Shown here one piece after another: positions 25,443 to 47,831 of a DNA stretch of 64,000 bases. The stretch is taken from contig JAYWMQ010000006.1 of NCBI GenBank assembly GCA_035873375.1, forward strand, positions 135,706 to 199,705, read 5' to 3'. The notes beneath the pieces were generated by a model. It saw only the letters and a list, made by a program, of their open reading frames with translations. It ran no database searches and was not told where the DNA came from. This DNA is from Nitrospirota bacterium. Its GTDB lineage: Bacteria > Nitrospirota > Thermodesulfovibrionia > Thermodesulfovibrionales > JdFR-85. The translations under genes and the position numbers were made by a program. How positions within the stretch are numbered: position 1 is the stretch's first letter; each line of letters starts with the position of its first letter.

Positions 25443-25974
25443 CCCTGCACCTCATATAAAGGCTTATGGTTATCTCCTTCAGGAGGAATGCTATATCGTC
25501 GGCCTGTTTCTCCAGATAGTGGTGCCCCACACTGATCGGGATGGCCACCAGGAGTCCGGCCGCAGTGGTGATAAGGGCCTCCCAGATTCCACCGGCAAGC
25601 ATGGATGGATTTACGCTTGTACTCGTCGCTATGACCATGAATGCCTTTATCATCCCGATAACCGTACCGGTGAGTCCCAAAAGAGGTGTGATTGTTGCAA
25701 TCAGACCAAGCCAGCTGAGTCCCCGTTCCGTCTCCCTTACCTGCCTTGTGCCGACCACTGACAATTCCTGTTCATCACAGCCCACTTCCAGCCCTTTGAT
25801 GATAGGCATTAAAATCAGGGGCCTTGTCTTCAACACCTCGTTCAGGGGACGTTCGATTGATCTGAAAATTCCCCTGTACTGAATTACCTTGTTTATAATT
25901 ATTGCAAGACCTGCAACAGAGCACAGCAGTATCGGATACATCAGAAAGCCGCCTTTTAAGATAAAATCAATCAT
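25432..25974 (-). CDS. exbB: MotA/TolQ/ExbB proton channel
   Basis: PLLGLTGTVIGM, GIWEALITTAAGL. Confidence 0.92.
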   Translation of the reverse strand: MIDFILKGGFLMYPILLCSVAGLAIIINKVIQYRGIFRSIERPLNEVLKTRPLILMPIIKGLEVGCDEQELSVVGTRQVRETERGLSWLGLIATITPLLGLTGTVIGMIKAFMVIATSTSVNPSMLAGGIWEALITTAAGLLVAIPISVGHHYLEKQADDIAFLLKEITISLYMRCRDGV

Positions 25975-26794: not shown

Positions 26795-26890
26795 CTCTAA
26801 CCTTTTGCTCCTTGCAATGACTATAATGGACTATTTACGAGTTCATCATATATACCCGCCTCCAGCGACAAAACAGCGACGGGCACTGTA

Positions 26891-27028
26891 AAGGAGAGAG
26901 ATGATAAACCCTGAACGGTTTTAAGTATCACAATAGCTTCACCTGGATGGTGAAGCGTGATACTTCCCTCGGAGTCCCGACTGGATGTCGGGACGAGAAT
27001 GAGTGAGGGGTTTATCATCTCTCTCCTT
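26891..27028 (-). repeat. Structured intergenic repeat, copy B
   Basis: Perfect 21-bp terminal inverted repeat aaggagagagatgataaaccc. Internal stems aagtatcac/gtgatactt, ttcacc/ggtgaa and tcccgac/gtcggga. Confidence 0.9.
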
Positions 27029-27133
27029 AAAACCTCTTATCTCTGAATCACGGTAAGATAATGATTAAATCCTGAGATTAAAAACCTCCATTCCCCTCAA
27101 ATAACCTTTCATCACAAAATCCATACATATACT

Positions 27134-28303
27134 TCATTCCCCGCCTTGACCCCACTTCTCCCTGAACCCCAGGGCAAAGGCCCTGTAAACAAGGTCCAGA
27201 AAACTCTCTCTTCCGATTCCCCGGGACTCTCCTGACAGGGCGGTTCTGTAGTATTCCAGACGGTGATATTTCCCTGAGAGCGCAGCAGCAATCTGTGCTC
27301 CATAGGTTGAAAGAATTTCGGGCACACAACTCTTCGGCAGTATCTCCCACTGAATCTTGTCCCTGAGGTGAACTATTGCTGCAACTGCCGCTACTGTAAG
27401 CGGATCGTTGTTTATGGAATTAAAATTCCTGCGGTAAAGTTCAGCCTCTTTTTCTGAAAGATAGCCGGTAATACCTGCACACATGGTGTCCATGCTGAGC
27501 CCGAAACGCTCCAGGTGAACACGGGCAAAACATCGGGCCTCCGGAGTGAGCTTGTTTTGCAATGACAGGGTCTTTTTTATTGCCTGAAGGACCGAGCGGC
27601 CGATCAGTTCACCGAGTTTGGAGTGCTTGCCCGCCCCCGTGAGGGGGGCACCGGTGTCCAGCCTGGAGGCAATCCCGATCTGGTCCGTGCCTGTTCCCGT
27701 GGCAAGCCCATCCGAATAGCGCGAAGGCACGGCAAGTTCCTGAAGGGCCGCTGTCTTGGCCTCAGTGGCGGTTATCACTGAACGCACCATTGCCGCAGGA
27801 GTCAGTTCCCTGTTGATGAACAGCATGGTGTTAATGGTGCCGTGAGCTGCCACCGGAGCTGTCCCCAGTTTCTCAAATACACCGTTGCTTTCATATACTG
27901 AAGCCGGATCACCAATCCTGCCTGCATTCGTCTCAACTCCCCCCGTGCATACAGCAACCACCCCCAGGTCACGAAATTTTTCCGACACTATGGCCGCATT
28001 ATTCATGTTTGCTGCAGTACCAAGGGAAGCGCTCTTTTCAGGTGGAAGCCCATACCGCTCACATATAGACCTCCTGTATCCGTCCGGATCAGAGCTCATT
28101 CTCCTGTGTGATTCATGGGAGTGTCCAGCTGGTTCACACGCCTGGTGATTGTAGATATACTCCAGGTCATCCCTGAGTCCGCCGTCCACACGGCAGGTGG
28201 ATATCACCCTGTGGGGAGACAGAAACCTGACATAGATAATCTTCTCCTCCCTGTGAACCTCAATTGCATCATAGAATCTTTCCAAAAGCATATACTCCTC
28301 CAT
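27134..28303 (-). CDS. cbiZ: Adenosylcobinamide amidohydrolase (CbiZ-like)
   Basis: NHQACEP, LGTAANM, GTIN, ATEAKTAAL, TGTGTD, KHSKLGELIG. Confidence 0.85.
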   Translation of the reverse strand: MEEYMLLERFYDAIEVHREEKIIYVRFLSPHRVISTCRVDGGLRDDLEYIYNHQACEPAGHSHESHRRMSSDPDGYRRSICERYGLPPEKSASLGTAANMNNAAIVSEKFRDLGVVAVCTGGVETNAGRIGDPASVYESNGVFEKLGTAPVAAHGTINTMLFINRELTPAAMVRSVITATEAKTAALQELAVPSRYSDGLATGTGTDQIGIASRLDTGAPLTGAGKHSKLGELIGRSVLQAIKKTLSLQNKLTPEARCFARVHLERFGLSMDTMCAGITGYLSEKEAELYRRNFNSINNDPLTVAAVAAIVHLRDKIQWEILPKSCVPEILSTYGAQIAAALSGKYHRLEYYRTALSGESRGIGRESFLDLVYRAFALGFREKWGQGGE

Positions 28304-29199
28304 TACAGATATAATCTGGAGATCTCGTAGATCCCCCGTAACCGTGATACATAAAGAATATCCCAGAGATAAAGACCATAAAGTATCTTCAGCAGCACAA
28401 GGGCTGTTGTGCTCAGAAGGACAACGGAGAGAAGCACCTTTTCTCCCTTTCCAAGCTGTCTGCTTTCGGCAGTTGAGCGGGCAGCCGAAGGCTGAAAAGC
28501 CCTTGACTGAATTGAGAGTGACAGTATATTCGACCTCCTGTAGCAGTTGATAAAGACAGGCCGTATCAGCTTCAGCCAGTTTTTAAGAAGCCTTGCCGGA
28601 TTGAAAGAGAGCACCCTTGCACCCCTCATACGCATGGCAAGAATAACAGTGGCAAACTCGTCCATTATGGCCGGAATAAACCTGATGGCAGTCACTGTCA
28701 TGAATGCAAGCACATAGGGCACCCTCAATTGAAGCATGCCCGAAAGCATCTTCCCTGTATCAGTACTCCAGCAGAAGAGAAAACCAAAGGTCATCATGGA
28801 GGCAAACCTCAATGACTGGATGGCACCATAGCGGAACCCTTCACGGTAGATACTTATATCCCCTGTCCACTTACCTATCAGGGGGGTATCCATATTGACA
28901 AGGTTTATGAGCACGGTCCTTGGTTCTTCAAAGTAGAAGATGGACTGGGAAAACATCGTTCCCCATACCGTCAATACAACAAGAAAAAGGAGCAGACGCA
29001 GCTTTGACCATTCCACCCGCTCAATACCTGCCAGAACCCATGAAACAGAAAAAAGAATGATGAGAGGAACCGTATTTTCAAGCATTACCGCATAGACCGA
29101 GATGCAGAGAAGGCCAATGATCTTGACCCTGGGATCGAGCCTGCCGATAATTCCCTGACGTTCCCTCTGCCGGGTAAGGCTGCTGATACCATAGCTCAT
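28303..29199 (-). CDS. ecfT: ECF transporter transmembrane T component
   Basis: LDPRVK N-terminus, RFIP, and two Arg-containing coupling-helix motifs (AMRMRGA, SIQSRAF). Confidence 0.85.
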   Translation of the reverse strand: MSYGISSLTRQRERQGIIGRLDPRVKIIGLLCISVYAVMLENTVPLIILFSVSWVLAGIERVEWSKLRLLLFLVVLTVWGTMFSQSIFYFEEPRTVLINLVNMDTPLIGKWTGDISIYREGFRYGAIQSLRFASMMTFGFLFCWSTDTGKMLSGMLQLRVPYVLAFMTVTAIRFIPAIMDEFATVILAMRMRGARVLSFNPARLLKNWLKLIRPVFINCYRRSNILSLSIQSRAFQPSAARSTAESRQLGKGEKVLLSVVLLSTTALVLLKILYGLYLWDILYVSRLRGIYEISRLYL

Positions 29200-31122
29200 C
29201 TAACCGTCCTCCCATTTCAACCGATCGCTGAATCGCCAGCCCATAAATGTCGCTGCAAAGGTATAGAGCAGGCTGTTCACTATCAGGGTCATGTATATGT
29301 ACCAGTCAGCAAAGTAGAGTCGGAAGAGCACCATATGCAGGTAGAGCCCGGTCAGGGTTATAAATGCATCGGCAACACACAGATAGAGCGCCAGATAAAA
29401 GACAGACGGTGTATTCCAGCGGAAATTTTCTCCCTTGCGCGTAAGTCCCGACATGTAGAAGGCCGCCTCCTTTGCAACTATGCCCGTACCTGTAAATAGT
29501 ATGTCCGTCAGTTGAAACCCGCCAAACATTATGCCGTTGAGCATATAGCGGACAAGGGTCGCAAATGTGACAGTGCCGGGTCTCGGGATCGACCTGACGA
29601 GCGAGACAAGGAGTGTCCAGTAAAGCAGCTCTGAAAAGAAACCTGTAACAAAGGCGCTGAAGGGACCGAGCAGTGCCGAGACAAGGTTTCCGAATATCCT
29701 GACAGGCAGGTTTGAGACCACAAAGGTCATTGCCCCGTAGAGTGAGATGATAACCAGCCACCTGACCTTCATGCCTGCCACAATATTTTTAAACCTGAGG
29801 ACAAAGACCAGAGTGGCAGTCAGACTCAGAAATACAGCAAAGAGTGTAAATGTCCATGCAGTCAGGTTCATGGATGTGACATAGAGGGGGAACTCATATT
29901 CTGCAACAGGGAGGACCGAGCCCATAGGGATAAGCTTTACCACCCTGCGGTACTCTCCGGGCAGGGGGTCAGAGGTTAAATAAACAGGCATCACCACCCG
30001 TGTCTTTTCTCCGGGCAGAAGCATGGCTGTCACAGTGACGGCCGTCTCCTTTGTCCCGCCGGTCAGCAAGTCCGGCGGTCTGAATGCCTCAGGCGTGATG
30101 TCACGGTCTTTATAATAGATACCGGAGTTGACAAGCAGTGCAATGCTGCCGGTCCCGGTGTTTTCCAGGACAAGGCTCTGATATGTAAAGGGATGATTGT
30201 AGTCAATATACTTTGGCTCAACCCCGAAAAAACGTCCGAGTTTCCGAAATACAGCGGGCTGTATGTATAGCGTGTCTTCTGCATACCGCCTGAGGGCTAT
30301 ACCGCGAATACCTACAGGTATTGATGTCTTTACAAGCCTTATTGTCTCCCCTGCTGATTCCTGTTTAACGACCTTGATGGTCACATCCCTGCTGAAGAAA
30401 GACTCCCTGCCTCCAGCTCCTTTCAAGGTAATGCCTGCATGGAGACGATACTTCCCTTCACCCGGCACCTGTATGCTGAAGGGGAGATAAAACCTCTCAT
30501 AAGCAACGGAGAGGGTTGTTCTGAAGTATATTACGGTCTCTTCTTCCCTGAAGACGACTCTCGTGTCACGGTTTTGCGGAAAAGCCGCAACCTTTACCCC
30601 TGCAGGGATGGTGACACTGCCTGTAATGATGGTCTCATCCTGCTGATATGTGGTAATGATAACGGCAGAGGTCAGTTCATTATTCTCAACTGCCGTGCTT
30701 AAAGCCTGCATCTCATTTTCAAATACCATGCCACCAGCCTGTTCAGCCATTGAGGTGAACGGGGCTGAAAACTGGACAGCAACAGCATAGTCATTATCCG
30801 GAGATTTTTCCTTTATATCCATAGTTCCCTGATTGCTTATGAGCCTGAATCTGTAGGTTGTGTTACTCTTCCAGTCAAAGGCAAGCCAGAGGTTCCCTTT
30901 CTTTATGTTGTTCAGGGACTGAGAGACGATCACACCTTCCGGACCCTGAATCCCGATAGACTTAAGTCTCAGCGGAGAGCTGAAAAACAGCCATGCACCA
31001 TCAGGGACAAACTTCACATCTGCCTCCTGCAAGGCCTCGTGTGGTGCAAGCAGATACCATGCAGTAACGCCGGTGCCTGCAAGTAATATAATAATTATGA
31101 TAGTTTTTTTAACCTTACTCAT
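29200..31122 (-). CDS. Membrane protein: N-terminal anchor, about 390-aa extracytoplasmic domain, extra TM, C-terminal ECF S-component-like domain
   Basis: Hydrophobicity read by eye. The last ~190 aa start LVIISLYGAMTFVV, like S-component helix 1, with ~6 TMs. Lies next to ecfT. Confidence 0.65.
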   Translation of the reverse strand: MSKVKKTIIIIILLAGTGVTAWYLLAPHEALQEADVKFVPDGAWLFFSSPLRLKSIGIQGPEGVIVSQSLNNIKKGNLWLAFDWKSNTTYRFRLISNQGTMDIKEKSPDNDYAVAVQFSAPFTSMAEQAGGMVFENEMQALSTAVENNELTSAVIITTYQQDETIITGSVTIPAGVKVAAFPQNRDTRVVFREEETVIYFRTTLSVAYERFYLPFSIQVPGEGKYRLHAGITLKGAGGRESFFSRDVTIKVVKQESAGETIRLVKTSIPVGIRGIALRRYAEDTLYIQPAVFRKLGRFFGVEPKYIDYNHPFTYQSLVLENTGTGSIALLVNSGIYYKDRDITPEAFRPPDLLTGGTKETAVTVTAMLLPGEKTRVVMPVYLTSDPLPGEYRRVVKLIPMGSVLPVAEYEFPLYVTSMNLTAWTFTLFAVFLSLTATLVFVLRFKNIVAGMKVRWLVIISLYGAMTFVVSNLPVRIFGNLVSALLGPFSAFVTGFFSELLYWTLLVSLVRSIPRPGTVTFATLVRYMLNGIMFGGFQLTDILFTGTGIVAKEAAFYMSGLTRKGENFRWNTPSVFYLALYLCVADAFITLTGLYLHMVLFRLYFADWYIYMTLIVNSLLYTFAATFMGWRFSDRLKWEDG

Positions 31123-32999
31123 CAGTGAATTATATGAACCCGGTACCTTCCCTTATTCGTGCCCTTTGCATCAGTAAACGGCACCTCCACGAGCGCTATA
31201 TACCTGCCGTCTGGTGATATGTCAGCCATGAAAAAGACCGGACCTTCCGTGGGATAAAGATAGATGAGTTTATCCATACCGGATCCCTTCCTTGATGTAT
31301 CAAAGAGAGTGGCCCCAAAAAAGGATGTCATACCGCCCCTGCGGGAGCCTGCCATCCCTGCAACGGCATTAACAGTAAAGAGCCACCTGCCGTTCCTGGA
31401 GAGATAAATGCCCTGCATGGAGCCGTAGGACTTCCATTTCCATCTCAGCCTGCCGTCAAAACCAAAGGCATAAAACTGATTTGCCGCAGGATGGGGCGCG
31501 GGTTTCTGCACCTTGCCTTTTACAGCACCTGAAGGAATGGAGGTTCCGGGCAGAACAAAGTAGACAGCATCAGGCCCGACCCTGGCATAGCTTATGTAGG
31601 ATGAGACTGGAATATCCCCGATCAGGACAGGTGTACCGATCTCCCTTATCCACACGGGACTGTTCTGTTGAAATCTCTTTCCCTCTACCTTTACAGCACT
31701 CTCTGTATCGAAGAACATTCCCCTGCCGTCATTAAGCCCGATTGCCGCATACCTGCCGTCCCTGGAGAGGGCAACCCCCTGCCAGGCACTGGCCGTCTCG
31801 TAATACGGCCTCAGGGGCGGCACCCTGTACTCCCACAGGACCTCTCCTGTCCTGCCGTTGAGGCAATAGAGTGTGCCGTTTCCGTACAGGGAATCAGTGC
31901 GCTCAGGTGGACGCCATGTTGACGTAAGAAGCAGGAGTTTCTCCCCACTGGCTGAGATATCAAACCATGTAAGGCTGTAGGGAAGCGGCCTGTCCACTGG
32001 CCACCGCCATTTTATACTGCCGGTCCTGCCGTTGAACCGGTAGACCATGCACCTGTAAAGCCTCCTGCCCTCCTTGTTCCATCCATGTGTGCCGACCACG
32101 ACCACATCACCACCGGGAAGCACCTTCAACTGGTAGACACCCGGAAACTTGTATATCGCATAACGGTCATTTTCCCTCTCAGGCCTCGATGTCTCAATGT
32201 CGTCAGCCAGGCGGTACTTCCATATTTCCCTGCCTGTCATTGCATCAAGACAGTAAAGATACCCGTCAGGTGACTGCTCTCCCACATACAGCACCCTTTG
32301 TCCGTCTATCTCTCCCCATCCAATACGCTTCACCATACCCTCAGCGATCTTCCGTGAGAAGACGACTTTACCGGTCCTCACCTCAACAACCCTGAGATAG
32401 CCCTGAAAACTGCCGATTGCAAGGTATTTATTGTCTTCTGAAAATTTCACGAATGTATCAGGGGCTGTCCCCTCGTCAATGCTGAATGGAACGACCTTTT
32501 CCAGCTCCACCCGCTGAACAAGCATGGGCGAAGGCTTGAGCGGCGCGGTAACCTCCTTCACAAACCGTGCATCTCTGCTGCGCACCTCCACGCTGTATTC
32601 CTCCCCGGGGCTCCATTTAAGGGGAATGAGCAGTTTTTTGTCTGCAAAAAGCACTGTTTCTTCATCCCCTTCGCCCTTCACCCACCTGAAAACCTTTCTC
32701 CCTTTCGAGCGGAGTGTAACCATCTTAAGCCCGCTCAGCTCCACAGCAAGTCCGTCACGGACAAAATAGACCTGAACCCCTGGCTGCTCCTTTATGCAGC
32801 CCTGCACAAAAACAAGCAGCAAGAGAGAGAAAAAAAGGCTCAACCGTCTGAATGATGAGAGATACCGGGGCGCAGGGTTTGAACGGTTTTTTTCGCTGAA
32901 AGCGAAAACCTCGGAGGCAGGCAGAATGCCTGTCGAGAATGAGTGAAAGCCCTGTGCCCCGGTATCTCTCAGGGGTTCCAACTCCAGTATATCAGGCAT
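31122..32999 (-). CDS. PQQ-like beta-propeller protein, probable lipoprotein
   Basis: Hydrophobic stretch ending VQGC. Repeats such as LYCLDAMTGREIWKY, YRFNGRTGSIKWRW, LYCLNGRTGEVLWEY. Confidence 0.75.
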   Translation of the reverse strand: MPDILELEPLRDTGAQGFHSFSTGILPASEVFAFSEKNRSNPAPRYLSSFRRLSLFFSLLLLVFVQGCIKEQPGVQVYFVRDGLAVELSGLKMVTLRSKGRKVFRWVKGEGDEETVLFADKKLLIPLKWSPGEEYSVEVRSRDARFVKEVTAPLKPSPMLVQRVELEKVVPFSIDEGTAPDTFVKFSEDNKYLAIGSFQGYLRVVEVRTGKVVFSRKIAEGMVKRIGWGEIDGQRVLYVGEQSPDGYLYCLDAMTGREIWKYRLADDIETSRPERENDRYAIYKFPGVYQLKVLPGGDVVVVGTHGWNKEGRRLYRCMVYRFNGRTGSIKWRWPVDRPLPYSLTWFDISASGEKLLLLTSTWRPPERTDSLYGNGTLYCLNGRTGEVLWEYRVPPLRPYYETASAWQGVALSRDGRYAAIGLNDGRGMFFDTESAVKVEGKRFQQNSPVWIREIGTPVLIGDIPVSSYISYARVGPDAVYFVLPGTSIPSGAVKGKVQKPAPHPAANQFYAFGFDGRLRWKWKSYGSMQGIYLSRNGRWLFTVNAVAGMAGSRRGGMTSFFGATLFDTSRKGSGMDKLIYLYPTEGPVFFMADISPDGRYIALVEVPFTDAKGTNKGRYRVHIIH

Positions 33000-35900
33000 C
33001 CGTCCTCTCCTCTATATCCCCCTCCACATCAAGATACACATCCTCAAGCCTCTTTTTCATCTCCTCAGAGGCATTCCACATTCCCCGATTAGCTGCCTCG
33101 AGGAGACGCTCGGCAATATTCTGCAGGGCATAGGGATTAACCTCTTTAAACCACTTCTGCATCTCCTCATCAAGCGCGTACTTTTCAGACAGGGCATCAT
33201 ACATCCAGTCTTCCATAACATCAGAGGTGGCATCCCAGTGGAATGAGATATCCACAGCCCTTGAGAGGTCTCCTGCACCCTTGTACCCGTGGCGCATGAG
33301 ACCCTCCATCCACTTGGGATTGAGTATCCGAGAGCGGAAGATATGTTTTGTCTCCTCCTGAATGCTCCTGTACCTGACACGATCCGGGTCGGATGCATCA
33401 CCTGAATATGCCTTTGGATAATTACCGGACACCGTCTTAACTGCTGCCACAAAGCCTCCAAAGTAGGCATTAAAGTCATCAGAGGAGAGCAGGTCATACT
33501 CCCGTGAATCCTCGTTTTTCACTACAAGGCTGATATCTGAAAGCCTCCTGCGGAACACCTCTCTCCTGTCTTCCCCATAAACCCCTTTGCCGTATGCATA
33601 CCCACCCCATGTAATATAGACCCCCCCCAGGTCCTCGCTCTTCTCCCATGCCTTTGCGTCAATAGCTGCCGGGATTCCCGCACCATAGACACCGGGGGGA
33701 TCGCTGAAGATACGGAATGATGCCTCACGCAAGGCCTCTTCAGGGTCAATACCGCGTTCAACAAGCTCTTCAGCCTCTGCCAGTACGTGTTTTCTCAAAA
33801 AATTCTTTCCATCAGGCTCATTGAGGGCAGTCACCATTGCTACAGCCTCATCCAGGAGTTCCATCAGGTTGGGGAACGAGTCCCTGAAAAAGCCTGACGT
33901 CCTGAAAGTCACATCCACGCGCGGAAACTTCAATTCCCCGACAGGGATAATCTCAAGCCCCTCGATACGCCCGTTCCTGCCGTTCCATATCGGCTTCATA
34001 CCCATAAGGTAGAAAGCCTCTGCAATGTCCTCACCCATTGTACGCATTGTAGGGCTGCCCCAAATGACCATGCCTATGCTTTCAGGAGGCTTGCCTGTCT
34101 CATTCATATGTCTTTCAACAAGTGCGTCTCCGAGTGCCTTGCCGGTGGCCCATGCAGTGAGGGACGGAATCCTGAAGGGATCAACGGAGAAGAAATTCCT
34201 TCCTGTGGGCAGGATGTCCACCATACCGCGGGTAGGAGTACCGCTGCCGCCGGGAAGGACATGCCTGCCTGAAAGGGCGGCAGCCACTGAATCTATCTCC
34301 TCTGTGGTCCGTTCCAGTTTCGGCAGTACGACATCCCTTATAAACTCCACCACTCTGCGCACCTCCGGGCCTTCATCTGCAATCAGGGGCTCGCTACCCT
34401 CTATCACAACTTTCACCATCTCAAGGGCAGTCCTGTGGATCTCTGTTATTGCAACGGCATTTGTGGGGAACCGGCCTGTCGGGTCTGCTTGTCCCCTGTA
34501 TTGAAGGAGATTGTCATAATCGTATCCCCACTGCCTTGCAATCGCCTCCCTCAGGGATGGTACATCCCCGTTTTTGATCCGCACCAGTTGAGTAACAAGC
34601 TCTGCAAGTCCTTCATCCTCGGGCACAATGCCCATTACGTGAAGGCCGTCATTGATGGCAGTATCAGCAACCTCGGAAAGATAGGAATGCAGCCTCTCCA
34701 CAAAAGCGTCAAAGTCTAAAAATGCTTCATCCTCAGAGACCTCTATATCCGAGTGAAGATTGTCTTTTGTGGCCAGTTGCCAAATCTCCTTCTGGAGTAC
34801 AGGCAGTCTTGCAGGGTTCATGGACTTTGTCTGGATGTACTCAAGGATTTTTGTATCCACCTCTGCCAGCCCCTCATACCTGTCGGCATTGGTCATAACA
34901 GGGATAAGGTGGTCAACCACACAGGCATAGGAGCGGCGCTTTGCCTGTGTGCCCTCTCCGGGGTCATTGATGATATAGGGATAGATATTCGGCAGGTCCA
35001 TTATGGAAATGTCGGGATAACACTCCTCAGAAAGCGCCAGAGACTTGCCGGGCAGCCACTCAAGGGAGCCGTGCTTGCCGATGTGGAGCACTGCATCCGC
35101 CTTAAAAACATCCCTTATCCACCTGTAATGAAATATGTAATGATGGCTTGGCGCAAGATGCGGGTCGTGAATCTTTTCAGGCTGCTCAACAAAGCCCCTT
35201 GGCGGCTGAATGCCTATGTATACATTGCCGTTGATAATCCCGTTGACCATAACCTCGTCTTCATGGACAAAGAGCTCACCCGGAATGTCTCCCCAGTCCT
35301 TAAGCATGTGTCTTTGGTTCTTCTCCGGGAGACCTTCGTGCCATACACTGTATTGAGCAGACCCAATACGGTCAGCCGCCTTCTGCGCCATACCCTCAGG
35401 GGTAAGCCACCTCCTGTCAGCAGTAACCCCGTCAAGTATCTCATGCGCAAGGGCATCACCTGATTCATACTCCCTTTCAATTGAATACCCCTCCTGCTTC
35501 AGCCTGTCGAGAATATTTTTAACACTTTTAAAGGAGTCAAGCCCTGCGGCACATCCGATGCGGTCATTGCGCGGCGGATAGTTATGAAAGATTACAGCTA
35601 CCCTCTTTTCAGCATTCGGCTTTATTCTGAGCATTGCCCATTTCCCTGCAAGGCTCACGATCTTCTCTATCCGCTCCTCAACAGGCATATTCCTCAGCAG
35701 CGTTGCACCTGTAAGCAGATCCTGTTCCGCCACATCCCTTGTTGAGACAGGCACGGTAATAAGGATGCCGTCAAACTCCGGCTGTGCTGCGCTTATGCAG
35801 ACATCCAGGGGAGTAGCCCCCTGTTCGGTCTCTTTCCAGTCCCTGTGGGTCGTAAAGAGGGTAATCGCCTGCAGAACCGGCACTCCGATCTTTTCATAAA

Positions 35901-36729
35901 CTCTGGCAAACTTGGGGAGGGTGAGCCTCATTGAAAAGACCATGCAACTCAGGAGCACATGGATAATGGTCTTTCCATCCACCTGAAAAAAATTCTCCGC
36001 AACCCACTCCGGGTCCCTGTTATTCAAAATCCTGTCAGGAAACCGGTTATAAAAGCATGCAATGGGAAAGCCCCCCTGCCTCTCTATCTCGTTGACAAGG
36101 CTGTCGACAAACGCCAGGTTGCCGTCCACGTAATAACCCTGATAAAACCACATGCCTATTATGGGAGTCTTTTTATCTTCAAGCTCTTTCAGGGATGTGC
36201 CCTGTGAGTCTATGTACTCGTTAAGTGTCAGGGACACCCCTGTGCGCGGGTGATAGATGCCCTCGCAGGGCATCTTCTGCGGCGGGTCACAGGGAATATC
36301 CTCTCCCGAGAACTTTTTTATCAGACTCCTGAAGAGATTTGTCCAGTTATCCCTGCCACCGAACTTGATAAAGCGCACCATCTCATCAAAAAAATCACTG
36401 CCGTATTCTGTGGAGTACTGTGCAGAGAGCGACATCTCGTCCTCATCACCGGGCTGAATGAAGACAAAGGCATTCCGGGATTCTTCAATCAGCCGGTCAA
36501 AAAACCTGAATGATTTTCTGCCTCCATGGAGTATCACGATTACACAGTCTGCTGTCTGAAGGTGATGAGTAAAACGATCCATCATCTTTGAGTCAAAAAG
36601 GTCGTCACTGGTCCGTGCCTGCACCTCCATACGTCCGGGATACTCCTCTTCTATCCGGCGAAATGCGCTGGTCATGCTTATCATTCCGGTGCCTGTGGCA
36701 TTAAATACAACTGTCTTTATCTTTTTCAT
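32992..36729 (-). CDS. cobN: Cobaltochelatase large subunit CobN (CobN/ChlH family)
   Basis: HIGKHGSLEWLPGK, NDPGEGTQAKRR, PTGRNF, NPKWMEG; 1245 aa. Confidence 0.92.
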   Translation of the reverse strand: MKKIKTVVFNATGTGMISMTSAFRRIEEEYPGRMEVQARTSDDLFDSKMMDRFTHHLQTADCVIVILHGGRKSFRFFDRLIEESRNAFVFIQPGDEDEMSLSAQYSTEYGSDFFDEMVRFIKFGGRDNWTNLFRSLIKKFSGEDIPCDPPQKMPCEGIYHPRTGVSLTLNEYIDSQGTSLKELEDKKTPIIGMWFYQGYYVDGNLAFVDSLVNEIERQGGFPIACFYNRFPDRILNNRDPEWVAENFFQVDGKTIIHVLLSCMVFSMRLTLPKFARVYEKIGVPVLQAITLFTTHRDWKETEQGATPLDVCISAAQPEFDGILITVPVSTRDVAEQDLLTGATLLRNMPVEERIEKIVSLAGKWAMLRIKPNAEKRVAVIFHNYPPRNDRIGCAAGLDSFKSVKNILDRLKQEGYSIEREYESGDALAHEILDGVTADRRWLTPEGMAQKAADRIGSAQYSVWHEGLPEKNQRHMLKDWGDIPGELFVHEDEVMVNGIINGNVYIGIQPPRGFVEQPEKIHDPHLAPSHHYIFHYRWIRDVFKADAVLHIGKHGSLEWLPGKSLALSEECYPDISIMDLPNIYPYIINDPGEGTQAKRRSYACVVDHLIPVMTNADRYEGLAEVDTKILEYIQTKSMNPARLPVLQKEIWQLATKDNLHSDIEVSEDEAFLDFDAFVERLHSYLSEVADTAINDGLHVMGIVPEDEGLAELVTQLVRIKNGDVPSLREAIARQWGYDYDNLLQYRGQADPTGRFPTNAVAITEIHRTALEMVKVVIEGSEPLIADEGPEVRRVVEFIRDVVLPKLERTTEEIDSVAAALSGRHVLPGGSGTPTRGMVDILPTGRNFFSVDPFRIPSLTAWATGKALGDALVERHMNETGKPPESIGMVIWGSPTMRTMGEDIAEAFYLMGMKPIWNGRNGRIEGLEIIPVGELKFPRVDVTFRTSGFFRDSFPNLMELLDEAVAMVTALNEPDGKNFLRKHVLAEAEELVERGIDPEEALREASFRIFSDPPGVYGAGIPAAIDAKAWEKSEDLGGVYITWGGYAYGKGVYGEDRREVFRRRLSDISLVVKNEDSREYDLLSSDDFNAYFGGFVAAVKTVSGNYPKAYSGDASDPDRVRYRSIQEETKHIFRSRILNPKWMEGLMRHGYKGAGDLSRAVDISFHWDATSDVMEDWMYDALSEKYALDEEMQKWFKEVNPYALQNIAERLLEAANRGMWNASEEMKKRLEDVYLDVEGDIEERTDA

Positions 36730-36774: not shown

Positions 36775-37809
36775 TCAGACCCCTGTCTTCATACCTCTTC
36801 GGCCCTTCCCGATCTCCTCAAACGGCTGCCTGCGCATACGATGTGGCAGGGCAAGCCCTGCAGCAACCTCAATATCCTCATCCGTGACATGGGTGCGTCC
36901 ATGCCAGGCTGCCAATGTCTTTGCTGTCTTGAGGGTGATTATATCCCCCCTGTGACCATCAACTCCCGCCTCCATACAGCGCGTTGCAATAGTGAAGAGT
37001 TTTTCCCTCTCGATCTTCACTTCCGGATACAGCTTTATCGCTGACTCAATCCGCTCAGCTGTCCTCGCAGACTCCTCCTTCCACTTCAGGCAGAAGACCT
37101 CCGGCTCGTCTTCAAAGGCGATCCGCCTCTCCATTACCTCCACCCTCTCTGCATGGTTCCGGCTGCCTTCAATGCTGACGCAGAGACCGAACCTGTCGAG
37201 GAGCTGCGGTCTCAATTCCCCCTCTTCGGGGTTCATGGTGCCTACCAGCGTAAACCGGGCAGGATGACTGAAGGAAACTCCCTCACGCTCCACGGTATTT
37301 ACTCCCATGGCAGCAGCATCCAGGAGCACGTCCACTACATGGTCGTCAAGCAGGTTAATCTCATCCACATAGAGGATTCCCCTGTGGGCTGCTGCAAGGA
37401 TGCCTGGCTCAAACCTCTTTTTCCCCTTGCTCAGGGCATGCTCGATATCCATGGTCCCGACAACCCGGTCCTCTGTAGCTGAAACAGGCAGCTCCACCAC
37501 CCTCACCTTCCGCCTTACAACATCAACGCCGTTTCCATTAAAAATCTCTTCAGCACAGCCCCTGTTGTCACAATCCCGGCAGACCCTTGAGTCTCCATTC
37601 CCGGGCATCTGGTAAGGACAACCCTTTACCACATCAATCAGCGGAAGTATGTCTGCCAGTGCCCTGACCGCCGTTGATTTTGCCGTGCCCTTCTCTCCCC
37701 TGACAAGTGCTCCGGCAATATGGGGATTGATGATATTAAGGATAAGGGCCAGTTTCATCTCATCCTGCCCCACAATTGCATTAAACGGATACATGGTTCT
37801 TCCGGTCAT
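36775..37809 (-). CDS. chlI: Chelatase AAA+ subunit (ChlI/BchI-like)
   Basis: [43 protein letters not shown]. Confidence 0.9.
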
Positions 37810-39890
37810 CAGATATTCCTCCTGACTATATTTACAATGTCGCCTGCCATAAGGTCATTAAAGCTGAAATGCTCTGCCCCCAGTGCTGAGGCAAGCCTTG
37901 CAGCAAGTCCGAACCTCACCACTGACTTTTCTTCCGTATCTATCACGATAAATTTTATCCGCTTCTCCCTTGACATCTCTCCGGCTATCCGCAGCACTTC
38001 GTCCTGCGGAGAAAGACGGTTGTCAATGGATACATTGGCCCTGCCGTCCGTAACGATTATTGCTATGGGGCGTGAAGAGGTCTCTTTCACAAGATGCACG
38101 CCGAGCAGATTAAAACCCTTGAGAAGCCCCTCTGACATGGGAGTGCGTCCTCCCACAGGCATCTCGCTGAGGTGTCTTACGGCAAGTTCAACAGACGAGG
38201 TGGGCGGCAGGTTGACCACGGCCTTTCGCTGTCTGAAGGTCACCATTGCCACCTTGTCTCTTTTCTGATAGGCATCGAGCAGGAGGGAGAGGATTGCCCC
38301 CTTGGTTGCAATCATGCGTGCCTTTGCCCCCATTGAGCCGCTGGCATCAACCATAAAGACAAGGAAATTCCCTACCCTCTTCTCCCTTATCTTTCTTCGT
38401 ATATCATCCCTGCGTATGGATATGGCCATTCCTCTCTCTTTTTCCCTGCTCCCCTGGTGCGGAGCAGCAGCCCTGATGGTCGCATCAATGGCTATATCAG
38501 GATATTTATCACTCTGAATACTTTTCACAAACCTGCCGCTCTTCTGCGTTGTTCTTGTCCTCGTACGTCTGCCCGAACCACGGCGCACAAGGCGATCCTT
38601 CTCCTGCGTAATACTCTGCACCCTGAATGTGCGGCCTGGCTCAAATACCTGTTCAGTACCCCCTGACGGCTCATCCTCTTCAGAGGACGATTCAGGATCA
38701 GGAAGTCCCCTCTGATAATCCTCCTCCACACCATCCATTTCACCGTCCCTGTCCTCTCCATTTTCATGGGGCTGATTCTTTATGTCATTGTTGTCAACAG
38801 ACCTGTTTTGCCCTTGCTCCTTCTGATCATCCCCGTCACCGGAATCATCACGGTTATCAGGATCATCATGCCCGGGTGGCGGCGGGGGCGGGGGCAGGGC
38901 ATCCCTTCTGCGGTGCAGTATTGCCATACCGGCCACACGGTTTATGTCACTGACCGTTACAGCGGAGCGGCCCTCATAGGCGGCAAGGGCCCTGGCTGCA
39001 TATTTTATAGCCATGTCCGCCCTGTGACCTGCAACGTTGTTTTGCAGGCATATTTCAGAGATAAGGCCAAGGAGTCGCTGAGGAAAGACCACCCCTTCAA
39101 GTCTTTCCCCCGCACTCCTGATCCGATCTGCAATCCCTCTGTTCTCGTTGAGGTAACGGGCTGCAAACTCCACGGGATTGTTGTCATAGCTGTCCCTCAT
39201 CTCCATGAGCCGTACCCTGTTGTCAGGATCGCCCTCCCCTCTAATCTCAACACAGAGGCCGAAGCGGTCGAGCAACTGAGGACGGAGCGCCCCTTCTTCA
39301 GGATTCATGGTGCCTGCAAGAATAAATCGTGAGGGATGAAGATATGAAAGTCCTTCACGCTCCACAATATTTATACCGCTTGAGACAGCATCGAGGATTA
39401 TATCCACTAAATGGTCATCCAGAAGATTAACCTCATCTATGTAGAGGATTCCCCTGTTTACCCTGGCAAGGAGCCCCGGCTGAAAACGCCTTTGCCCTTT
39501 CCTCATGGCAAATTCAATATCCAGGCTGCCGGTGACCATCTCCTCTGTTGCATTCAGCGGAAGGGTGACAAGGGGAACCTTGATATATCCGCTTTCAGGA
39601 TAATTTCCAGTCTTGATCTTCCCTGCACATTCAGGACAGAGGAGCACCCTGTTGTCAGGATCACAGAGACACGAACATCCCCTGACCACTTTTATATCAG
39701 GTAAAAGACTCCTTAATGCCCTGACTGCCGTTGATTTTGCAGTACCTTTCTCCCCCCTGATGAGTACACCGCCGATGCGGGGCTCTATTGCATTGAGGAT
39801 AAGTGCAAGCTTCATCTCCTCCTGTCCCATGATTGCGGAGAAGGGATAAAGATAATCCTCTGTCAGTGTCCTGTTGTTATTAAACTCCAT
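37809..39890 (-). CDS. chlD: Chelatase subunit D (AAA + Pro/acidic linker + vWA)
   Basis: [16 protein letters not shown] followed by a D/E-rich linker, MIDAS VDASGSM. Confidence 0.9.
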
Positions 39891-41556
39891 TCACCACTCC
39901 TATAAATTCCTCAACTGTAAGTGCAGGCGGGGAGATTCCGCTTTTCCTTGAAAGCATGAAGGACAACGAAGGCAGAAGGCCTGCATCTTTGAGGGCCTCT
40001 TCACTGCCAAGCACCTCCCTGGCCGGACCGTCAGCAACCACACAGCCATCCTTCATAAGCAATACCCTGTTTGAAAAACGCACTGCTGTCTCAAAATCAT
40101 GCGTGCAGAAAACCACCGCCTCTATCCCGGCTTCATTTCTGATTATTCGGATCAGGTTGCATATATTCTCCTCGTTCTGCCCTGTCGTCGGCTCATCCAG
40201 CAGCAGCAGCCGCGGGTCCATGGCAAGCACCGCCCCTATCACCACCCTGAGACGCTGTCCTTTTGATAGGGCATGCGGGGGTATCCTTTCCAGTCCTTCA
40301 AGCCGAAGCATAGCGACAAGGGACCTGTTTCTTGCCATGCGCACCACTTTATCAACACCAAGATTCTTCTGGCTGAACTCCAGTTCAACCCACACACTGT
40401 CTTCAAATAACTGGAGGTCAGGATTCTGAAAGACCATTCCCACCCTGCCCGAATTTCCATGCCTGCGTCCCTTGAGACTGCTCAGTCCGTTCATTTCGGC
40501 ACTGCCTGCAACCGGCTGGTTCAGGCCTGACAGTATACTCAGGAGCGTTGATTTGCCTGAACCGTTCTGCCCCATGATCGCAATTATGTCACCACTGTAA
40601 ATCTCAAGAGAGACTCCTTTTAAGGACGGCTCCCCTGCCCCCCGGTAGGCAAAGGAGATATCCCTGAGAGAGGCAACACGTCTTTTTTTAGTGCCATTGT
40701 TTCCTGCAGGACTCTCATACCTGAAGCCCTGCTTTGATGGTTTGAGTTTAATGACTTCATCAATCAGATTCCCGGTCCACTCACTTGCCCATTCGTGGCA
40801 AACAGCCCCTGCAATCTGAACGGCATCAGGCACCTTGAGGCCAAGGGTTTTAAAAATTCCGGTATGTGCCGGCAGGTCCTTCCTGTCAATATCAAGGACG
40901 ACCCTTCCCTGGTCCATCACCATTATACGGTCGACAATCCCTATCACGTCATCCACCCTGTGCTCCACCAGGACGATGGTTATGCCCCTCTGCTTAAGGT
41001 CATCGAGACACCTGACTATCTCGGCAGTACCGGCAGGGTCGAGCTGGCTCACCGGCTCATCAAGCGCCAGCACCACCGGTCCCATGGCGAGTTGCGAGGC
41101 AATGGCAACACGCTGTTTCTGACCACCGGAGAGTCTTGCGGTCTGCCGTTCTTCAAATCCCTCAAGACCGACCTGGGCCAAGGCCTCCCCCACTCTCTTC
41201 GTGATCTCTGCAGGGGGAAGGCCGAGATTTTCAGGGCCGAATGATATCTCATCCCTCACTGTATTACAGAAGAGCTGATCATCAGGACTCTGAAATACCA
41301 TCCCCACATATTGCGAGATGTAGGGCAGGGACGAAGTGCGGGTCTCTATTCCGTTGACAACCACCAGACCCCGCATCCCACCTGCGCTCTCATGAGGGAT
41401 TATCCCACCCAGCATCTTCAGAAGCGTGCTCTTGCCGCAGCCTGTACGGCCTGTGACAAGCACGCACTGTCCCCTGGGCACGGAAAAGGAGACCTCCTGC
41501 ACTGACAGATCGCTGCGTCCTGCATATTTAAAGGAGACGTTTTTAAAGGTTATCAT
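39880..41556 (-). CDS. Duplicated ABC ATPase (ECF A-A' fusion)
   Basis: GRTGCGKST/LSGGQ/DEP and GQNGSGKST/LSKGQ/DEPT. FQSPDDQ and FQNPDLQ Q-loops are typical of EcfA. Confidence 0.9.
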   Translation of the reverse strand: MITFKNVSFKYAGRSDLSVQEVSFSVPRGQCVLVTGRTGCGKSTLLKMLGGIIPHESAGGMRGLVVVNGIETRTSSLPYISQYVGMVFQSPDDQLFCNTVRDEISFGPENLGLPPAEITKRVGEALAQVGLEGFEERQTARLSGGQKQRVAIASQLAMGPVVLALDEPVSQLDPAGTAEIVRCLDDLKQRGITIVLVEHRVDDVIGIVDRIMVMDQGRVVLDIDRKDLPAHTGIFKTLGLKVPDAVQIAGAVCHEWASEWTGNLIDEVIKLKPSKQGFRYESPAGNNGTKKRRVASLRDISFAYRGAGEPSLKGVSLEIYSGDIIAIMGQNGSGKSTLLSILSGLNQPVAGSAEMNGLSSLKGRRHGNSGRVGMVFQNPDLQLFEDSVWVELEFSQKNLGVDKVVRMARNRSLVAMLRLEGLERIPPHALSKGQRLRVVIGAVLAMDPRLLLLDEPTTGQNEENICNLIRIIRNEAGIEAVVFCTHDFETAVRFSNRVLLMKDGCVVADGPAREVLGSEEALKDAGLLPSLSFMLSRKSGISPPALTVEEFIGVVNGV

Positions 41557-41577: not shown

Positions 41578-43635
41578 CTAAAGTGAAACCCTGTAGCTTA
41601 GATACCAGGCCCGTCCGGATAATGGAAACTCCGGTTTTTCATAATAATACTCGTCAAAGATATTGTTGACCTTAAGGGTTAGCTCCTGCTGCTTTTTGAA
41701 TTTAATACCGGCAACAAGGTCAACAACAGTAAAGCCTTTATAGGTAATTTCGGGATATCCAGGTGTATACCAGTCATAATCCTTGCGGCTGCCAACGTAG
41801 CGGGCCAGCAGCCTTGTGTTGACCCGGCCGTCATCATAGCTGAGGCCGTAGTTCACCTTCCAGCGGGCAACGTTATGAATATTGTCCTCTTCTTCCCCGG
41901 GTATCTTCTCTGTTGCTTCAAAGAGCCTGGTGGCATTGGTAAAGAAACTGACAGAGCGGTCCCATTTAAAGAAGACTCCGGCATCCCATTTGAGTTCAAC
42001 CTCCATCCCTTCCATTCTGGCCTCAGCCGCATTCTCAAAAGTGGTAATATTGCCGTCCTTCTTCCGCGTGATCTTGTCGTCCACCCTTGTCAGGAAATAG
42101 GTTGTATCCAGGCTAAGCCCCCAGTCATTGCGGTCAAGGCCAACCCCTATATCCCAGGTCCAGCTCTTCTCAGGTCCGAGGTCAGGGTTTCCCTGTGTTA
42201 TCATTGTGGTGCCACCAACGATCCGCTCGGAATATCCGGCCATCTGGTAGGCATTAGGAGGCACAAAGGCCTTGCCCAGCGTGCTGTGAAGGTTCAGGAT
42301 GGAAGAGATAAAGTACTTGATTCCAAACCTTGGATTTATGGTATCAAAGTTTTCGCTGGCTGGATAAAAATCCGTCTTGTACGGGGTCTCCTTGGTCTCC
42401 ACATTGAAGTAATCATAACGAAGCCCTGCATTCAGTATGAGTCTGTTATCAAGAAACTTCCATAATGTGTCGCCAAAGACTGCCCAGTTCTCCCTTTCAT
42501 CATCAGGAGAATAAGGGGCCTTGCGGGTTCCGTCCTGTTTGTAGCTCTTACGTTCCTCCTCAATATCCTGGTAATCGGCTCCAACAGTAAACTGATGAGT
42601 CCTCCAGTGCGTTGCATTTTGAATCTGCACACCCTGCCACCTGGTGGCACTTTCGTAATTCTTGTAGGGCTCTGCAAGGACATAGGAGCCAACGCTGTAA
42701 TCATAGACATACTTCTTGTAATACTCACTGCTTTCATTGGAGGCAAAGACTGTAACCCTGCTCTCGTTTTGACCCCAAACCCTTCTTAACTGCATGTCGC
42801 CTCCGTAGCGCACAATATCCTTCCGGCTCTGCTGAAGATCACCGTAAAAGAGTGCTCCAGGCGTTTCAATATCAATTCCCTTATACAGATCACCCTTGAT
42901 ATCCAGCCTCCAGCCGGGGCTGAGGTCACTGCCGAGACGCAGCGAGCCATACCTTGTCTTGTACGAGGTTCCGGGGCGGATACCTTCTCCGTCACCCAGT
43001 TTCATGTCACTCACCTGTGTGTAGTTGCGAAGTGTCAGGTCGAAATCGAGCCAATCGGCAAGACGGCCTCCGGCAGCCAGCTTTTCAAAGTTGGTATCAA
43101 AACTGCCTCCACCCAATTCAGCAGAACCTGTGAGGGGGCCTATGGTCTTCTTTGTGATTATATTGATCACACCACCCATTGCTTCAGCACCGTAAAGGGA
43201 AGAGGCCGGCCCCTTCAGCACCTCTATGCGCTCTACATTGTCCATCAGGATAGTGGCAAGGTTGGTGGCACCGGCCGGCCGGCCGTCGATAAGGAGTAAC
43301 GAGTGCTTTGTAATCCCTGAAAACTCAGGTCTGAAGCCCCGTATGCTGATCCCTGAAAGTGCACCCGGGTACTCGATAACGTCAACATTGCTGTTCTTCT
43401 TGAGCTGTTCGGAAAGTGTATCTCCAGCAGTCGCCTTAATCTCTTCAGAGGTTATTACATCCACAACCTGGGGAACCTCTTTTTTCGGCATCTCCGTACG
43501 GGTTGCAGTAACAACAATCTCTTCCATAGCGTTAACGTCATTGCCTGTCGTGTCATCACCTGCAGACGCAGTTGTGACTATGAATAAAATACAGAGGGTA
43601 ATCAAAACAGGATACAAAAGATGCGTTGCTTTCAT
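41578..43635 (-). CDS. TonB-dependent outer-membrane receptor (B12-regulated)
   Basis: Signal peptide, TonB box EEIVVTA, plug ERIEVLKGPASSLYG, C-terminal NIFD.YY...GR.W. Confidence 0.92.
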   Translation of the reverse strand: MKATHLLYPVLITLCILFIVTTASAGDDTTGNDVNAMEEIVVTATRTEMPKKEVPQVVDVITSEEIKATAGDTLSEQLKKNSNVDVIEYPGALSGISIRGFRPEFSGITKHSLLLIDGRPAGATNLATILMDNVERIEVLKGPASSLYGAEAMGGVINIITKKTIGPLTGSAELGGGSFDTNFEKLAAGGRLADWLDFDLTLRNYTQVSDMKLGDGEGIRPGTSYKTRYGSLRLGSDLSPGWRLDIKGDLYKGIDIETPGALFYGDLQQSRKDIVRYGGDMQLRRVWGQNESRVTVFASNESSEYYKKYVYDYSVGSYVLAEPYKNYESATRWQGVQIQNATHWRTHQFTVGADYQDIEEERKSYKQDGTRKAPYSPDDERENWAVFGDTLWKFLDNRLILNAGLRYDYFNVETKETPYKTDFYPASENFDTINPRFGIKYFISSILNLHSTLGKAFVPPNAYQMAGYSERIVGGTTMITQGNPDLGPEKSWTWDIGVGLDRNDWGLSLDTTYFLTRVDDKITRKKDGNITTFENAAEARMEGMEVELKWDAGVFFKWDRSVSFFTNATRLFEATEKIPGEEEDNIHNVARWKVNYGLSYDDGRVNTRLLARYVGSRKDYDWYTPGYPEITYKGFTVVDLVAGIKFKKQQELTLKVNNIFDEYYYEKPEFPLSGRAWYLSYRVSL

Positions 43636-43671
43636 TTTTTTCTTCCTCCCGCGAGAAATTTTTAGTTTTTT

Positions 43672-43882
43672 TCCGGTCTGGACAGGTCTTCCGGCTCAGG
43701 GCGATAAGACAGTTGCGAGTTGCGGGTTCCGGGTTGCGAGTCAAACCGCGTCTCTTTCCTACTCACCCGCCTTCCCGTCATGGTGTTATCCATGACAGTG
43801 GCTTCTTTCGGGCTTTCGTTCCCTTCACGGCTGCGGGGCAGCGGGGGATTTTCACCCCTCTTCCCTGACATCCAGCCTTGTG
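43672..43882 (-). ncRNA. Cobalamin riboswitch 1
   Basis: Minus strand: AGGGAA-GGTGAAAATCC-GCTGCCCCGCAGCCGTGA...GCCACTG...GGGAAGG...GAGCCGGAAGACCTG, directly upstream of the receptor RBS. Confidence 0.93.
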
Positions 43883-44029
43883 GTCAAAATGCGTGTTTAT
43901 AAATTACTGCCTCTGTTCTCACCTCCCTTACTGTCAGATCCCTACTGTCATACTGAACTTGTTTCAGCATCTGCGTGTTACCTCTCCAAGATTTTCATAA
44001 CTTACGGTTTTTTCAGTCATGAACCGACC

Positions 44030-44862: not shown

Positions 44863-45000
44863 AGGAAGTGATATGATAGAGTCTGAACGGTTTTAAGTAT
44901 CACAAAGGCTTCACCTGGATGGTGAACCGTGATACTTCCCTCGGAGTGCCGGCTGGATGCCGGGACGAGAATGAGTTCAGACTCTATCATATCGCTTCCT
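44863..45000 (-). repeat. Structured intergenic repeat, copy C (overlaps the nrdG stop)
   Basis: Terminal arms 25/26 complementary. The 94-nt core differs from copy B at 6 positions, including one compensatory pair. Confidence 0.9.
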
Positions 45001-47810: not shown

Positions 47811-47831
47811 TCCGCCTCCCTGGCAGTTCAT

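Follow-up and report, generated by a model that had tools for sequence, protein, structure and literature searches.

In their textbook form, energy-coupling factor (ECF) transporters have no extracytoplasmic binding protein, and their small S subunit rotates freely in the membrane. The 64,000-nucleotide stretch of Nitrospirota DNA analysed here (the window; contig JAYWMQ010000006.1 of assembly GCA_035873375.1, positions 135,706 to 199,705 of the forward strand) holds a gene for a 640-residue protein in which a domain resembling an S component is tethered to a large, predicted periplasmic region. The locus thereby raises the question of what such a fusion protein does, which partners it works with and what it would carry. 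The protein is probably the S subunit of a dedicated group I type ECF importer, together with an EcfT protein and a fused EcfA-A′ ATPase encoded in the same operon. This reading is favoured because the gene neighbourhood and the clade formed by the EcfT proteins show the pattern expected of such a system. The importer would most likely serve a corrinoid.

Layout and fold of the fusion protein

Hydropathy places a first transmembrane helix (TM1) at residues 6-28 of the protein and a hydrophobic block from residue 420 to the C-terminus. The full-length AlphaFold2 model, with a predicted local distance difference test score (pLDDT) of 74, agrees with this layout. It has a helix at residues 2-25, only strands between residues 34 and 417, and C-terminal helices at residues 420-449, 453-511, 517-533, 538-558, 571-600 and 606-634. 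The approximately 390 beta-rich residues split into three sandwich domains, D1, D2 and D3. A first-pass annotation, made from the sequence alone, had proposed TM1, a beta-rich region of about 390 residues, a second transmembrane helix (TM2), a basic loop and a C-terminal domain of about 190 residues with several transmembrane helices. This layout is borne out by both approaches, the C-terminal domain being 188 residues long. The gene and its parts are:

29200..31122 (-), fusion protein of 640 residues, putative S subunit with extracytoplasmic extension; single open frame
31039..31107 (-), TM1 signal-anchor, residues 6-28, after the basic MSKVKK; hydropathy, model helix 2-25
30766..31032 (-), D1, beta-sandwich nearest the membrane anchor, residues 31-119, common to the propeller protein discussed below; strands 34-119 in the model, hhalign 97%
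30367..30708 (-), D2, variable beta-sandwich, residues 139-252; model strands 139-252
29872..30342 (-), D3, conserved beta-sandwich, residues 261-417, passing without a linker into H0; model and family profile
29776..29865 (-), H0 (TM2), residues 420-449, predicted return helix from periplasm to cytoplasm; hydropathy and both models
29203..29766 (-), six-helix domain with predicted S-component fold, residues 453-640 (188 residues); model, Foldseek and hhalign

The variability of D2 is illustrated by the many family members that match the family profile only from about position 245 on, and the conserved core of the family extends from about this residue to the C-terminal end. D3 carries the conserved motifs HPFTYQ, FRPPD and PGEYRR. 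The basic stretches of the protein are MSKVKK, RFKNIVAGMKVR, LTRKGENFR and the C-terminal RFSDRLK; the loop RFKNIVAGMKVRW (residues 443-455), also basic, includes the turn of some three residues that connects H0 with H1. Based on the number of helices and the positive-inside rule, the N-terminus is predicted to be cytoplasmic and D1-D3 periplasmic, after which H0 would lead back to the cytoplasm and the six-helix core would begin and end inside. The additional helix H0, already singled out in the first-pass annotation, is required by this topology to bring the chain back, so that the S domain starts inside. The chain ends six residues past H6 and has no cytoplasmic output or signalling domain.

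A Foldseek search with the full-length model was swamped by generic tandem immunoglobulin (Ig)-like matches, such as alpha-2-macroglobulin and integrins. Therefore, the C-terminal domain was modelled alone, from an alignment of the last 226 residues of 41 loci, resulting in a pLDDT of 89.5 and a predicted template modelling score (pTM) of 0.85. The best match of this model in the PDB is 5EDL, the S component YkoE, with a probability of 1.00 and an E-value of 0.017; over 193 columns with 18% identity, the template modelling score (TM-score) is 0.56 (query) or 0.63 (target) and the root-mean-square deviation (rmsd) 4.6 Å. The next matches are NikM (4M5B, 4M58), CbiM (5X3X) and ThiT (3RLB, 4MUU), with CbiM and NikM at TM-scores of 0.38-0.47 and an rmsd above 10. 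Nearly all of the remaining listed matches, mostly G-protein-coupled receptors and TolQ, stay below a TM-score of 0.3; the unrelated 9c7u_C reaches 0.40/0.43. An S-component fold of the C-terminal domain is well supported by this model, in line with the first-pass reading, which had named comparison by AlphaFold and Foldseek with BtuM, CbrT and other S components as a check. CbrT and BtuM themselves are not among the 50 best structural matches, and neither gives a sequence match in the PDB library at E≤10.

At the sequence level, the relationship to known S components is distant. When whole proteins were searched against Pfam and NCBIfam, the window protein had no match, and no Pfam domain was found in 42 diverse family members. 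The Pfam family of YkoE, PF09819 (gathering threshold 25.2 bits), is weakly matched by five of 41 family members (best E 0.0011) and does not match the window protein even at E≤10. In the PDB sequence library, the full-length profile has a sole match, to factor IXa at E 1.3, which is due to chance, and the C-terminal profile has none at E≤10. Because PF09819 was not found in 201 genomes of the window's own phylum, stand-alone members were drawn from the phylum of a Firmicutes metagenome-assembled genome (MAG). The profile of these 16 proteins matches 5EDL YkoE at E 7e-23. Aligned to it with hhalign, the C-terminal profile of the family scores a probability of 93.4% (E 2.6e-7, 143 columns). The alignment begins after H0, at H1, and puts helix 1 on helix 1, whereas controls with reversed profiles and with EcfT as an unrelated membrane-protein profile remain below 1%. 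Since the window protein falls below the Pfam threshold while profile-profile homology reaches 93.4%, its C-terminal domain is a remote relative of YkoE-type S components rather than a formal PF09819 member, with H0 added to the six-helix core. Besides the fold match to 5EDL, this homology upholds the S-component interpretation.

The relationship is also visible in a 376-residue homologue from the Firmicutes MAG (locus L085), in which a signal and a single sandwich domain precede H0 and the S domain. This protein scores above Pfam's PF09819 threshold (26.7 bits) and aligns to the family at 98.5-99.1%, spanning residues 310-639 of the window protein, i.e., D3, H0 and the S domain. At this locus (L085 1321-3248, genome G201), the gene of the homologue lies between one for a DUF3344 protein bearing a C-terminal anchor, on the upstream side, and one for a fused EcfA-A′, an arrangement that may represent a simpler ancestral form of the system. 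The longer PF09819 frames in the same phylum (345-464 residues) turned out to have C-terminal extensions, not N-terminal fusions.

Putative EcfT partner, operon and cobalamin control

S components carry a small-xxx-A (AxxxA-type) docking motif in helix 1 (PMC5037267, PMC11109136). In helix 1 of the family, position 460 is S, A, T or G and position 464 is A, T, S or G in all 41 sequences, and G463 is kept in 38 of them; the small residues at 460 and 464 match the motif for docking to EcfT, as far as can be judged from sequence. At the corresponding positions, MreD and the 5TMR-LYT kinases have bulky residues (PMC11109136). The gene of the predicted EcfT partner directly abuts that of the fusion protein:

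28303..29199 (-), EcfT (CbiQ family), with coupling-helix motifs AIRFIP and AMRMRG; Pfam CbiQ 97.3 bits

Of the 24 linked EcfT proteins, 23-24 retain the coupling-helix motifs AxRFxP and Ax(R/K)x(R/K)G. In a maximum-likelihood tree, all family-linked EcfTs group in one clade (support 96/95), and the other EcfT/CbiQ genes of the same genomes fall outside it. The family-linked EcfTs are a dedicated subfamily that tracks the fusion protein across phyla. The genome of the window also has a third, orphan CbiQ-like gene of 217 codons on another contig (C17; L003 1492-2145), which has a very long branch and no ATPase or S gene beside it.

While a word-indexed homologue search returned 12 close relatives only, the family was revealed by an exhaustive profile search, with 457 clusters (50% identity) at E≤1e-3 and 284 at E≤1e-30. 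In reference genomes, 366 family loci are present, including those in Nitrospirota, Thermodesulfobacteriota (with the isolate Dethiosulfatarculus sandiegensis SPR, whose locus is preceded by a riboswitch), Planctomycetota, Poribacteria, Fibrobacter, Verrucomicrobiota and Bacillota, as well as in a Sandaracinaceae MAG and an Actinomycetes MAG. Every named member is annotated as "hypothetical protein", the family has no Pfam model, and no description of it was found in literature searches. Gene neighbourhoods were counted for the 59 family genes that have 4 kb or more of sequence on either side. An EcfT gene lies within 6 kb at every one of the 19 loci of the non-Poribacteria type, and 16 of these 19 also have a fused EcfA-A′; many of these genes are directly abutting. 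CobN, ChlI, ChlD, CbiZ, the receptor and TonB-ExbBD are often near these 19 family genes as well. The loci of the Actinomycetes and Firmicutes MAGs have the same gene set without a TonB-dependent receptor. The diderm setting envisaged in the first-pass annotation consequently has to be given up as a property of the family, which is not diderm-specific.

In the one Poribacterial genome examined (G205), the sole EcfT is encoded beside a fused EcfA-A′ (L128 8606-13208) with no S gene next to them, and this EcfT falls inside the family-linked clade (96/95). A 669-codon gene before this ECF module was considered as a family member and rejected, as it encodes a B12-binding radical SAM/DUF4070 enzyme. 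At the Poribacterial family loci (L021 8109-13683; also L019, L038, L053 and L078), the family gene and the propeller gene come after a riboswitch and a gene of about 426 codons that has no more than a faint dockerin match. These loci are flanked by an extracytoplasmic function sigma/anti-sigma pair, an HtrA protease and several PD40 propeller paralogues in a row. A different arrangement occurs in a Selenomonadales MAG (L079 495-14396), where two complete tandem paralogous sets of family gene, EcfA-A′, EcfT and propeller are separated by ExbB-ExbD-TonB and followed by CobN, receptor and ChlD.

In the window, the operon genes all lie on the minus strand, abutting or overlapping, in the 5′ to 3′ order riboswitch, receptor, EcfA-A′, ChlD, ChlI, CobN, propeller, fusion protein, EcfT, CbiZ and TonB-ExbB-ExbD. 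Besides the two genes given above, the operon comprises:

43664..43890 (-), cobalamin riboswitch aptamer at the operon head, 29 nucleotides upstream of the receptor gene; Rfam RF00174, 75.3 bits (gathering score 31.5)
41578..43635 (-), TonB-dependent outer-membrane receptor; Pfam Plug and TonB_dep_Rec_b-barrel
39880..41556 (-), fused EcfA-A′ ATPase with two nucleotide-binding domains; two ABC_tran stretches, ECF_ATPase_1 398 bits and ECF_ATPase_2 387 bits, both above cut-off
37809..39890 (-), ChlD-like chelatase subunit with AAA+ and VWA domains; Pfam AAA_lid_2, Mg_chelatase and VWA_2
36775..37809 (-), ChlI-like chelatase AAA+ subunit; Pfam Mg_chelatase, AAA_lid_2 and AAA_5
32992..36729 (-), CobN-type large chelatase subunit; Pfam CobN-Mg_chel 1282 bits, TIGR02257 985 bits, above cut-off
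31122..32999 (-), beta-propeller protein with a lipoprotein-like signal (…LLLLVFVQGC); Pfam PQQ_2 43.9 bits, PQQ_2/WD40-type models
27134..28303 (-), CbiZ, adenosylcobinamide amidohydrolase; Pfam CbiZ 213.6 bits
25997-26794 (-), TonB; Pfam TonB_C
25432-25974 (-), ExbB; Pfam MotA_ExbB
25053-25442 (-), ExbD; Pfam ExbD

The first-pass annotation had called the fusion protein the only S candidate for the adjacent EcfT and EcfA-A′. Indeed, the operon has no second S candidate, its sole gap (26795-27133) being too short for one, and EcfT abuts; EcfA-A′, however, is encoded five genes upstream in the same operon. PF12822 was not found in the rest of the genome, which is 99% complete, and the single CbiM lies on another contig beside its own CbiQ.

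Same-strand cobalamin riboswitches lie upstream in the window and at 10 of the 21 other loci scanned. The latter include all five Poribacteria-type loci tested, two in Thermodesulfobacteriota, one in Planctomycetota and one in Sandaracinaceae, and Nitrospirota are also represented. Because of these riboswitches, the family counts as part of the B12 regulon in five or more phylum-level groups. The window has a second cobalamin riboswitch (48074-48301 (-)) upstream of the gene of the anaerobic ribonucleotide reductase NrdD (45717-47831 (-)). After this gene come two others, for a radical SAM activase-like protein (44977-45720) and a pterin-binding protein (44030-44806). Apparently, the B12-independent reductase is repressed by B12.

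The most constant neighbour of the family is the propeller gene, present within 6 kb in 56 of the 59 loci. The N-terminal sandwich domain of the window's propeller protein (residues ~72-157) is homologous to D1 of the fusion protein (hhalign 97%, E 1.1e-10, residues 31-113 of the fusion protein), with all controls (reversed profile, D2 and D3) below 1%. As BLASTP between the two domains is not significant (E 0.66), the relation is visible by profile-profile comparison alone. Both proteins thus are paralogues with respect to the domain after the membrane anchor, consistent with a physical pairing of the two, although such pairing is proposed from sequence. The propeller frame has about 47 residues ahead of its signal-like segment RRLSLFFSLLLLVFVQGC, so that the true start may be further downstream, and its lipobox has an unusual Gln at position -2.

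Substrate, proposed mechanism and rival explanations

The operon riboswitch is of the cobalamin type and not of the thiamine pyrophosphate type. A corrinoid substrate has somewhat better than an even chance, since the operon encodes the corrinoid-salvage enzyme CbiZ and a TonB-dependent receptor with its own TonB-ExbBD. The CobN-ChlID chelatase of the operon, in turn, suggests a tetrapyrrole cargo that requires metal chemistry.

In the proposed mechanism, the operon would be switched off by cobalamin. A corrinoid, or a related tetrapyrrole other than the finished vitamin, would cross the outer membrane via the receptor. On the periplasmic side, the ligand would be taken over from the receptor by the propeller, by the sandwich domains D1-D3 or by both, and the propeller and sandwich domains may pair through their common N-terminal domain. 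The ligand would then reach the S domain beneath D3, which is joined to H0 without a linker and would cover the pocket. The S domain would contact EcfT and topple, with the ECF module driving the inward movement, and in the cytoplasm CbiZ and the chelatase would process the imported compound. The hand-off from the periplasmic domains to the S domain is plausible. It had also been proposed in the first-pass annotation, where a periplasmic capture domain passes substrate to a toppling S domain; this model omits the beta-propeller lipoprotein.

Several points weigh against a corrinoid-importing ECF system. The rigid D3-H0 junction and the linker of about three residues between H0 and H1 in the model may hinder the toppling by about 90 degrees of small S components. 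CbiM, with seven helices like H0 and the S core together, is nonetheless toppled in its complex (entry 5X3X). No ligand-binding residues have been identified in the fusion protein, the window protein has no Pfam or NCBIfam match, and the Foldseek E-value of its best match is merely 0.017. The receptor scores better on heme-receptor models than on BtuB models. Moreover, 40 of the 59 loci, those of the Poribacteria type, have no adjacent ECF module. As cobalt transporters, too, are under cobalamin riboswitches, the substrate could be a metal. Lastly, a third cobalamin riboswitch of the genome (contig C25, 7543-7820) heads an operon (C25 1-9500, L134) that encodes, in this order, a 438-residue protein without a Pfam match, CbiK, a PepSY_TM protein, an ABC-2 exporter-like pair, BtuC (FecCD), BtuD and BtuF. 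From these assignments, a riboswitch-controlled conventional route for finished B12 is already present, and the ECF system is not needed to explain B12 uptake as such.

Possibly, although this is doubtful in its full form, the system is a binding-protein-dependent ECF transporter. The propeller lipoprotein would capture the corrinoid released by the receptor and dock via its N-terminal domain on D1, and the ligand would pass through D3 into a YkoE-type pocket that has no lid of its own. The rigid joint between D3/H0 and the S core may then mean a restricted or different movement compared to free toppling. What enters the cell would be a corrinoid that lacks its metal or is incomplete in another way, and CobN-ChlID and CbiZ would finish it into a usable B12 precursor. 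If true, strict anaerobes and sponge symbionts would have a salvage pathway of this kind.

That the system, together with the TonB-dependent receptor, instead imports cobalt or nickel, the metal being inserted by CobN-ChlI-ChlD into a corrin precursor and the periplasmic domains acting like CbiN, NikK or NikL, is unlikely. The control of cobalt transporters by cobalamin riboswitches is common and well established, CobN-type chelatases use Co2+, and chelatase genes are frequent neighbours of the family. NikM and CbiM are among the structural matches, and the arrangement of TM1, periplasmic segment and TM2 topologically resembles a greatly enlarged CbiN. However, the nearest fold and the sole sequence-level relatives are YkoE-type vitamin S components and not CbiM or NikM, whose metal binding uses a free N-terminus, while this end of the S domain is fused to H0 in the fusion protein. 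In addition, a CbiM beside its own CbiQ is already encoded in the genome, the corrinoid-salvage enzyme CbiZ is part of the operon, and CbiK is encoded elsewhere in the genome. The presence of CbiK points to the early-cobalt pathway, which would leave CobN without an endogenous substrate.

Import of heme or another metalloporphyrin, with CobN as a de-chelatase like HmuS and BtuS of Bacteroidota, is improbable. In its favour, the CobN-like HmuS strips iron from heme (PMC12583661), BtuS1 and BtuS2 are required for the use of heme iron (PMC6460266), and ECF heme importers exist (PMC7299338). The best NCBIfam matches of the receptor are to heme/hemoglobin (261 bits) and B12 receptor subfamilies, all below the cut-offs, and about half of the loci scanned have no cobalamin riboswitch within their flanks. 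Nevertheless, such a riboswitch is found at the operon head here and in four further phylum-level groups, CbiZ is co-encoded, and the complete ChlI-ChlD motor fits an insertion reaction powered by ATP. Elements for heme degradation or iron regulation were not seen in the operon.

It is very improbable that the S-fold domain is a non-transport membrane scaffold or receptor module anchoring the periplasmic domains: although the S fold does occur in non-transport proteins such as MreD, the 5TMR-LYT kinases carry an N-terminal H0 in the same topology (PMC11109136), and the Poribacteria-type loci have no adjacent ECF module, the fusion protein has no cytoplasmic output domain and keeps small helix 1 residues where MreD and the kinases have bulky ones, its gene neighbours a co-evolving EcfT clade and a fused EcfA-A′ without another S gene, and the sole EcfT of the Poribacterial genome examined belongs to the same clade without an S gene of its own.

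With the ECF importer for a corrinoid as the preferred reading, the family offers a way to ask how ECF importers of diderms obtain substrate from TonB-dependent receptors. It would constitute a candidate route across the inner membrane for salvaging corrinoids, with a link to the CobN-type chelatases of anaerobes, which lack an explanation so far. Moreover, hundreds of proteins now called "hypothetical" would gain a role, among them those that belong to the B12 regulon of the sponge-symbiont Poribacteria.

Comparison with known systems

The pathway made up of BtuB and the type II ATP-binding cassette (ABC) importer BtuCD-F, and the Bacteroides protein BtuG, are related to the system of the window by functional analogy only, with a receptor, a soluble or tethered capture protein and an inner-membrane ABC-type motor in sequence. 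BtuG, a B12-binding propeller lipoprotein, resembles the propeller lipoprotein of the operon and by analogy suggests that the latter could bind a corrinoid. The membrane machinery differs, as BtuCD is replaced here by a putative ECF module.

A topological resemblance exists with the 5TMR-LYT kinases (PF07694), which also combine an H0 running from outside to inside with a six-helix S fold (PMC11109136). Unlike the fusion protein, these kinases have cytoplasmic signalling domains, no small-residue motif in helix 1 and no link to ECF modules.

CbiMNQO and NikMNQO are group I ECF systems as well, with a seven-helix S unit and extra membrane-anchored extracytoplasmic components (CbiN, NikN, NikK and NikL). 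The cbiMNQO genes are commonly under the control of cobalamin riboswitches, and natural fusions of an S unit and its accessory component exist. In CbiM and NikM, however, the extra helix is part of the metal site and a free N-terminus is needed, and CbiN is tiny and follows CbiM. Furthermore, there is no sequence relation with the fusion protein and the structural match is weaker.

Cobalamin and cobinamide uptake by membrane proteins with an S fold, a role akin to the one proposed here, is known from CbrT (in ECF-CbrT) and BtuM, the latter occurring in Gram-negative bacteria (PMC6072759). Both are small stand-alone proteins, and BtuM works without an ECF module. In general, stand-alone S components of about 20-25 kDa contrast with the 640 residues, the approximately 390 predicted extracytoplasmic residues and the two extra helices of the fusion protein.

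YkoE of Bacillus subtilis (5EDL, PF09819) is both the best structural match and the only family with detectable profile homology. YkoEDC moreover resembles the system of the window in being a dedicated module with a fused double ATPase (YkoD, corresponding to EcfA-A′), its own T subunit and riboswitch control. Helices H1 and H2 of YkoE are long, and a lid loop is absent (PMC5037267), which would leave room for an external lid such as D3. YkoE itself is a stand-alone protein of about 200 residues without H0 or an external domain. It binds thiamine and is controlled by a THI-box riboswitch in Gram-positive bacteria, whereas the operon of the window combines a cobalamin riboswitch with a receptor, a propeller and a chelatase. 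Compared to the textbook ECF transporters, the family would depart in both defining respects, as it is large and spread over many phyla, with an S domain tethered to three external domains and a propeller lipoprotein that shares one of them. It would thus represent an unnamed, widespread ECF variant with an extracytoplasmic extension and an external partner protein.

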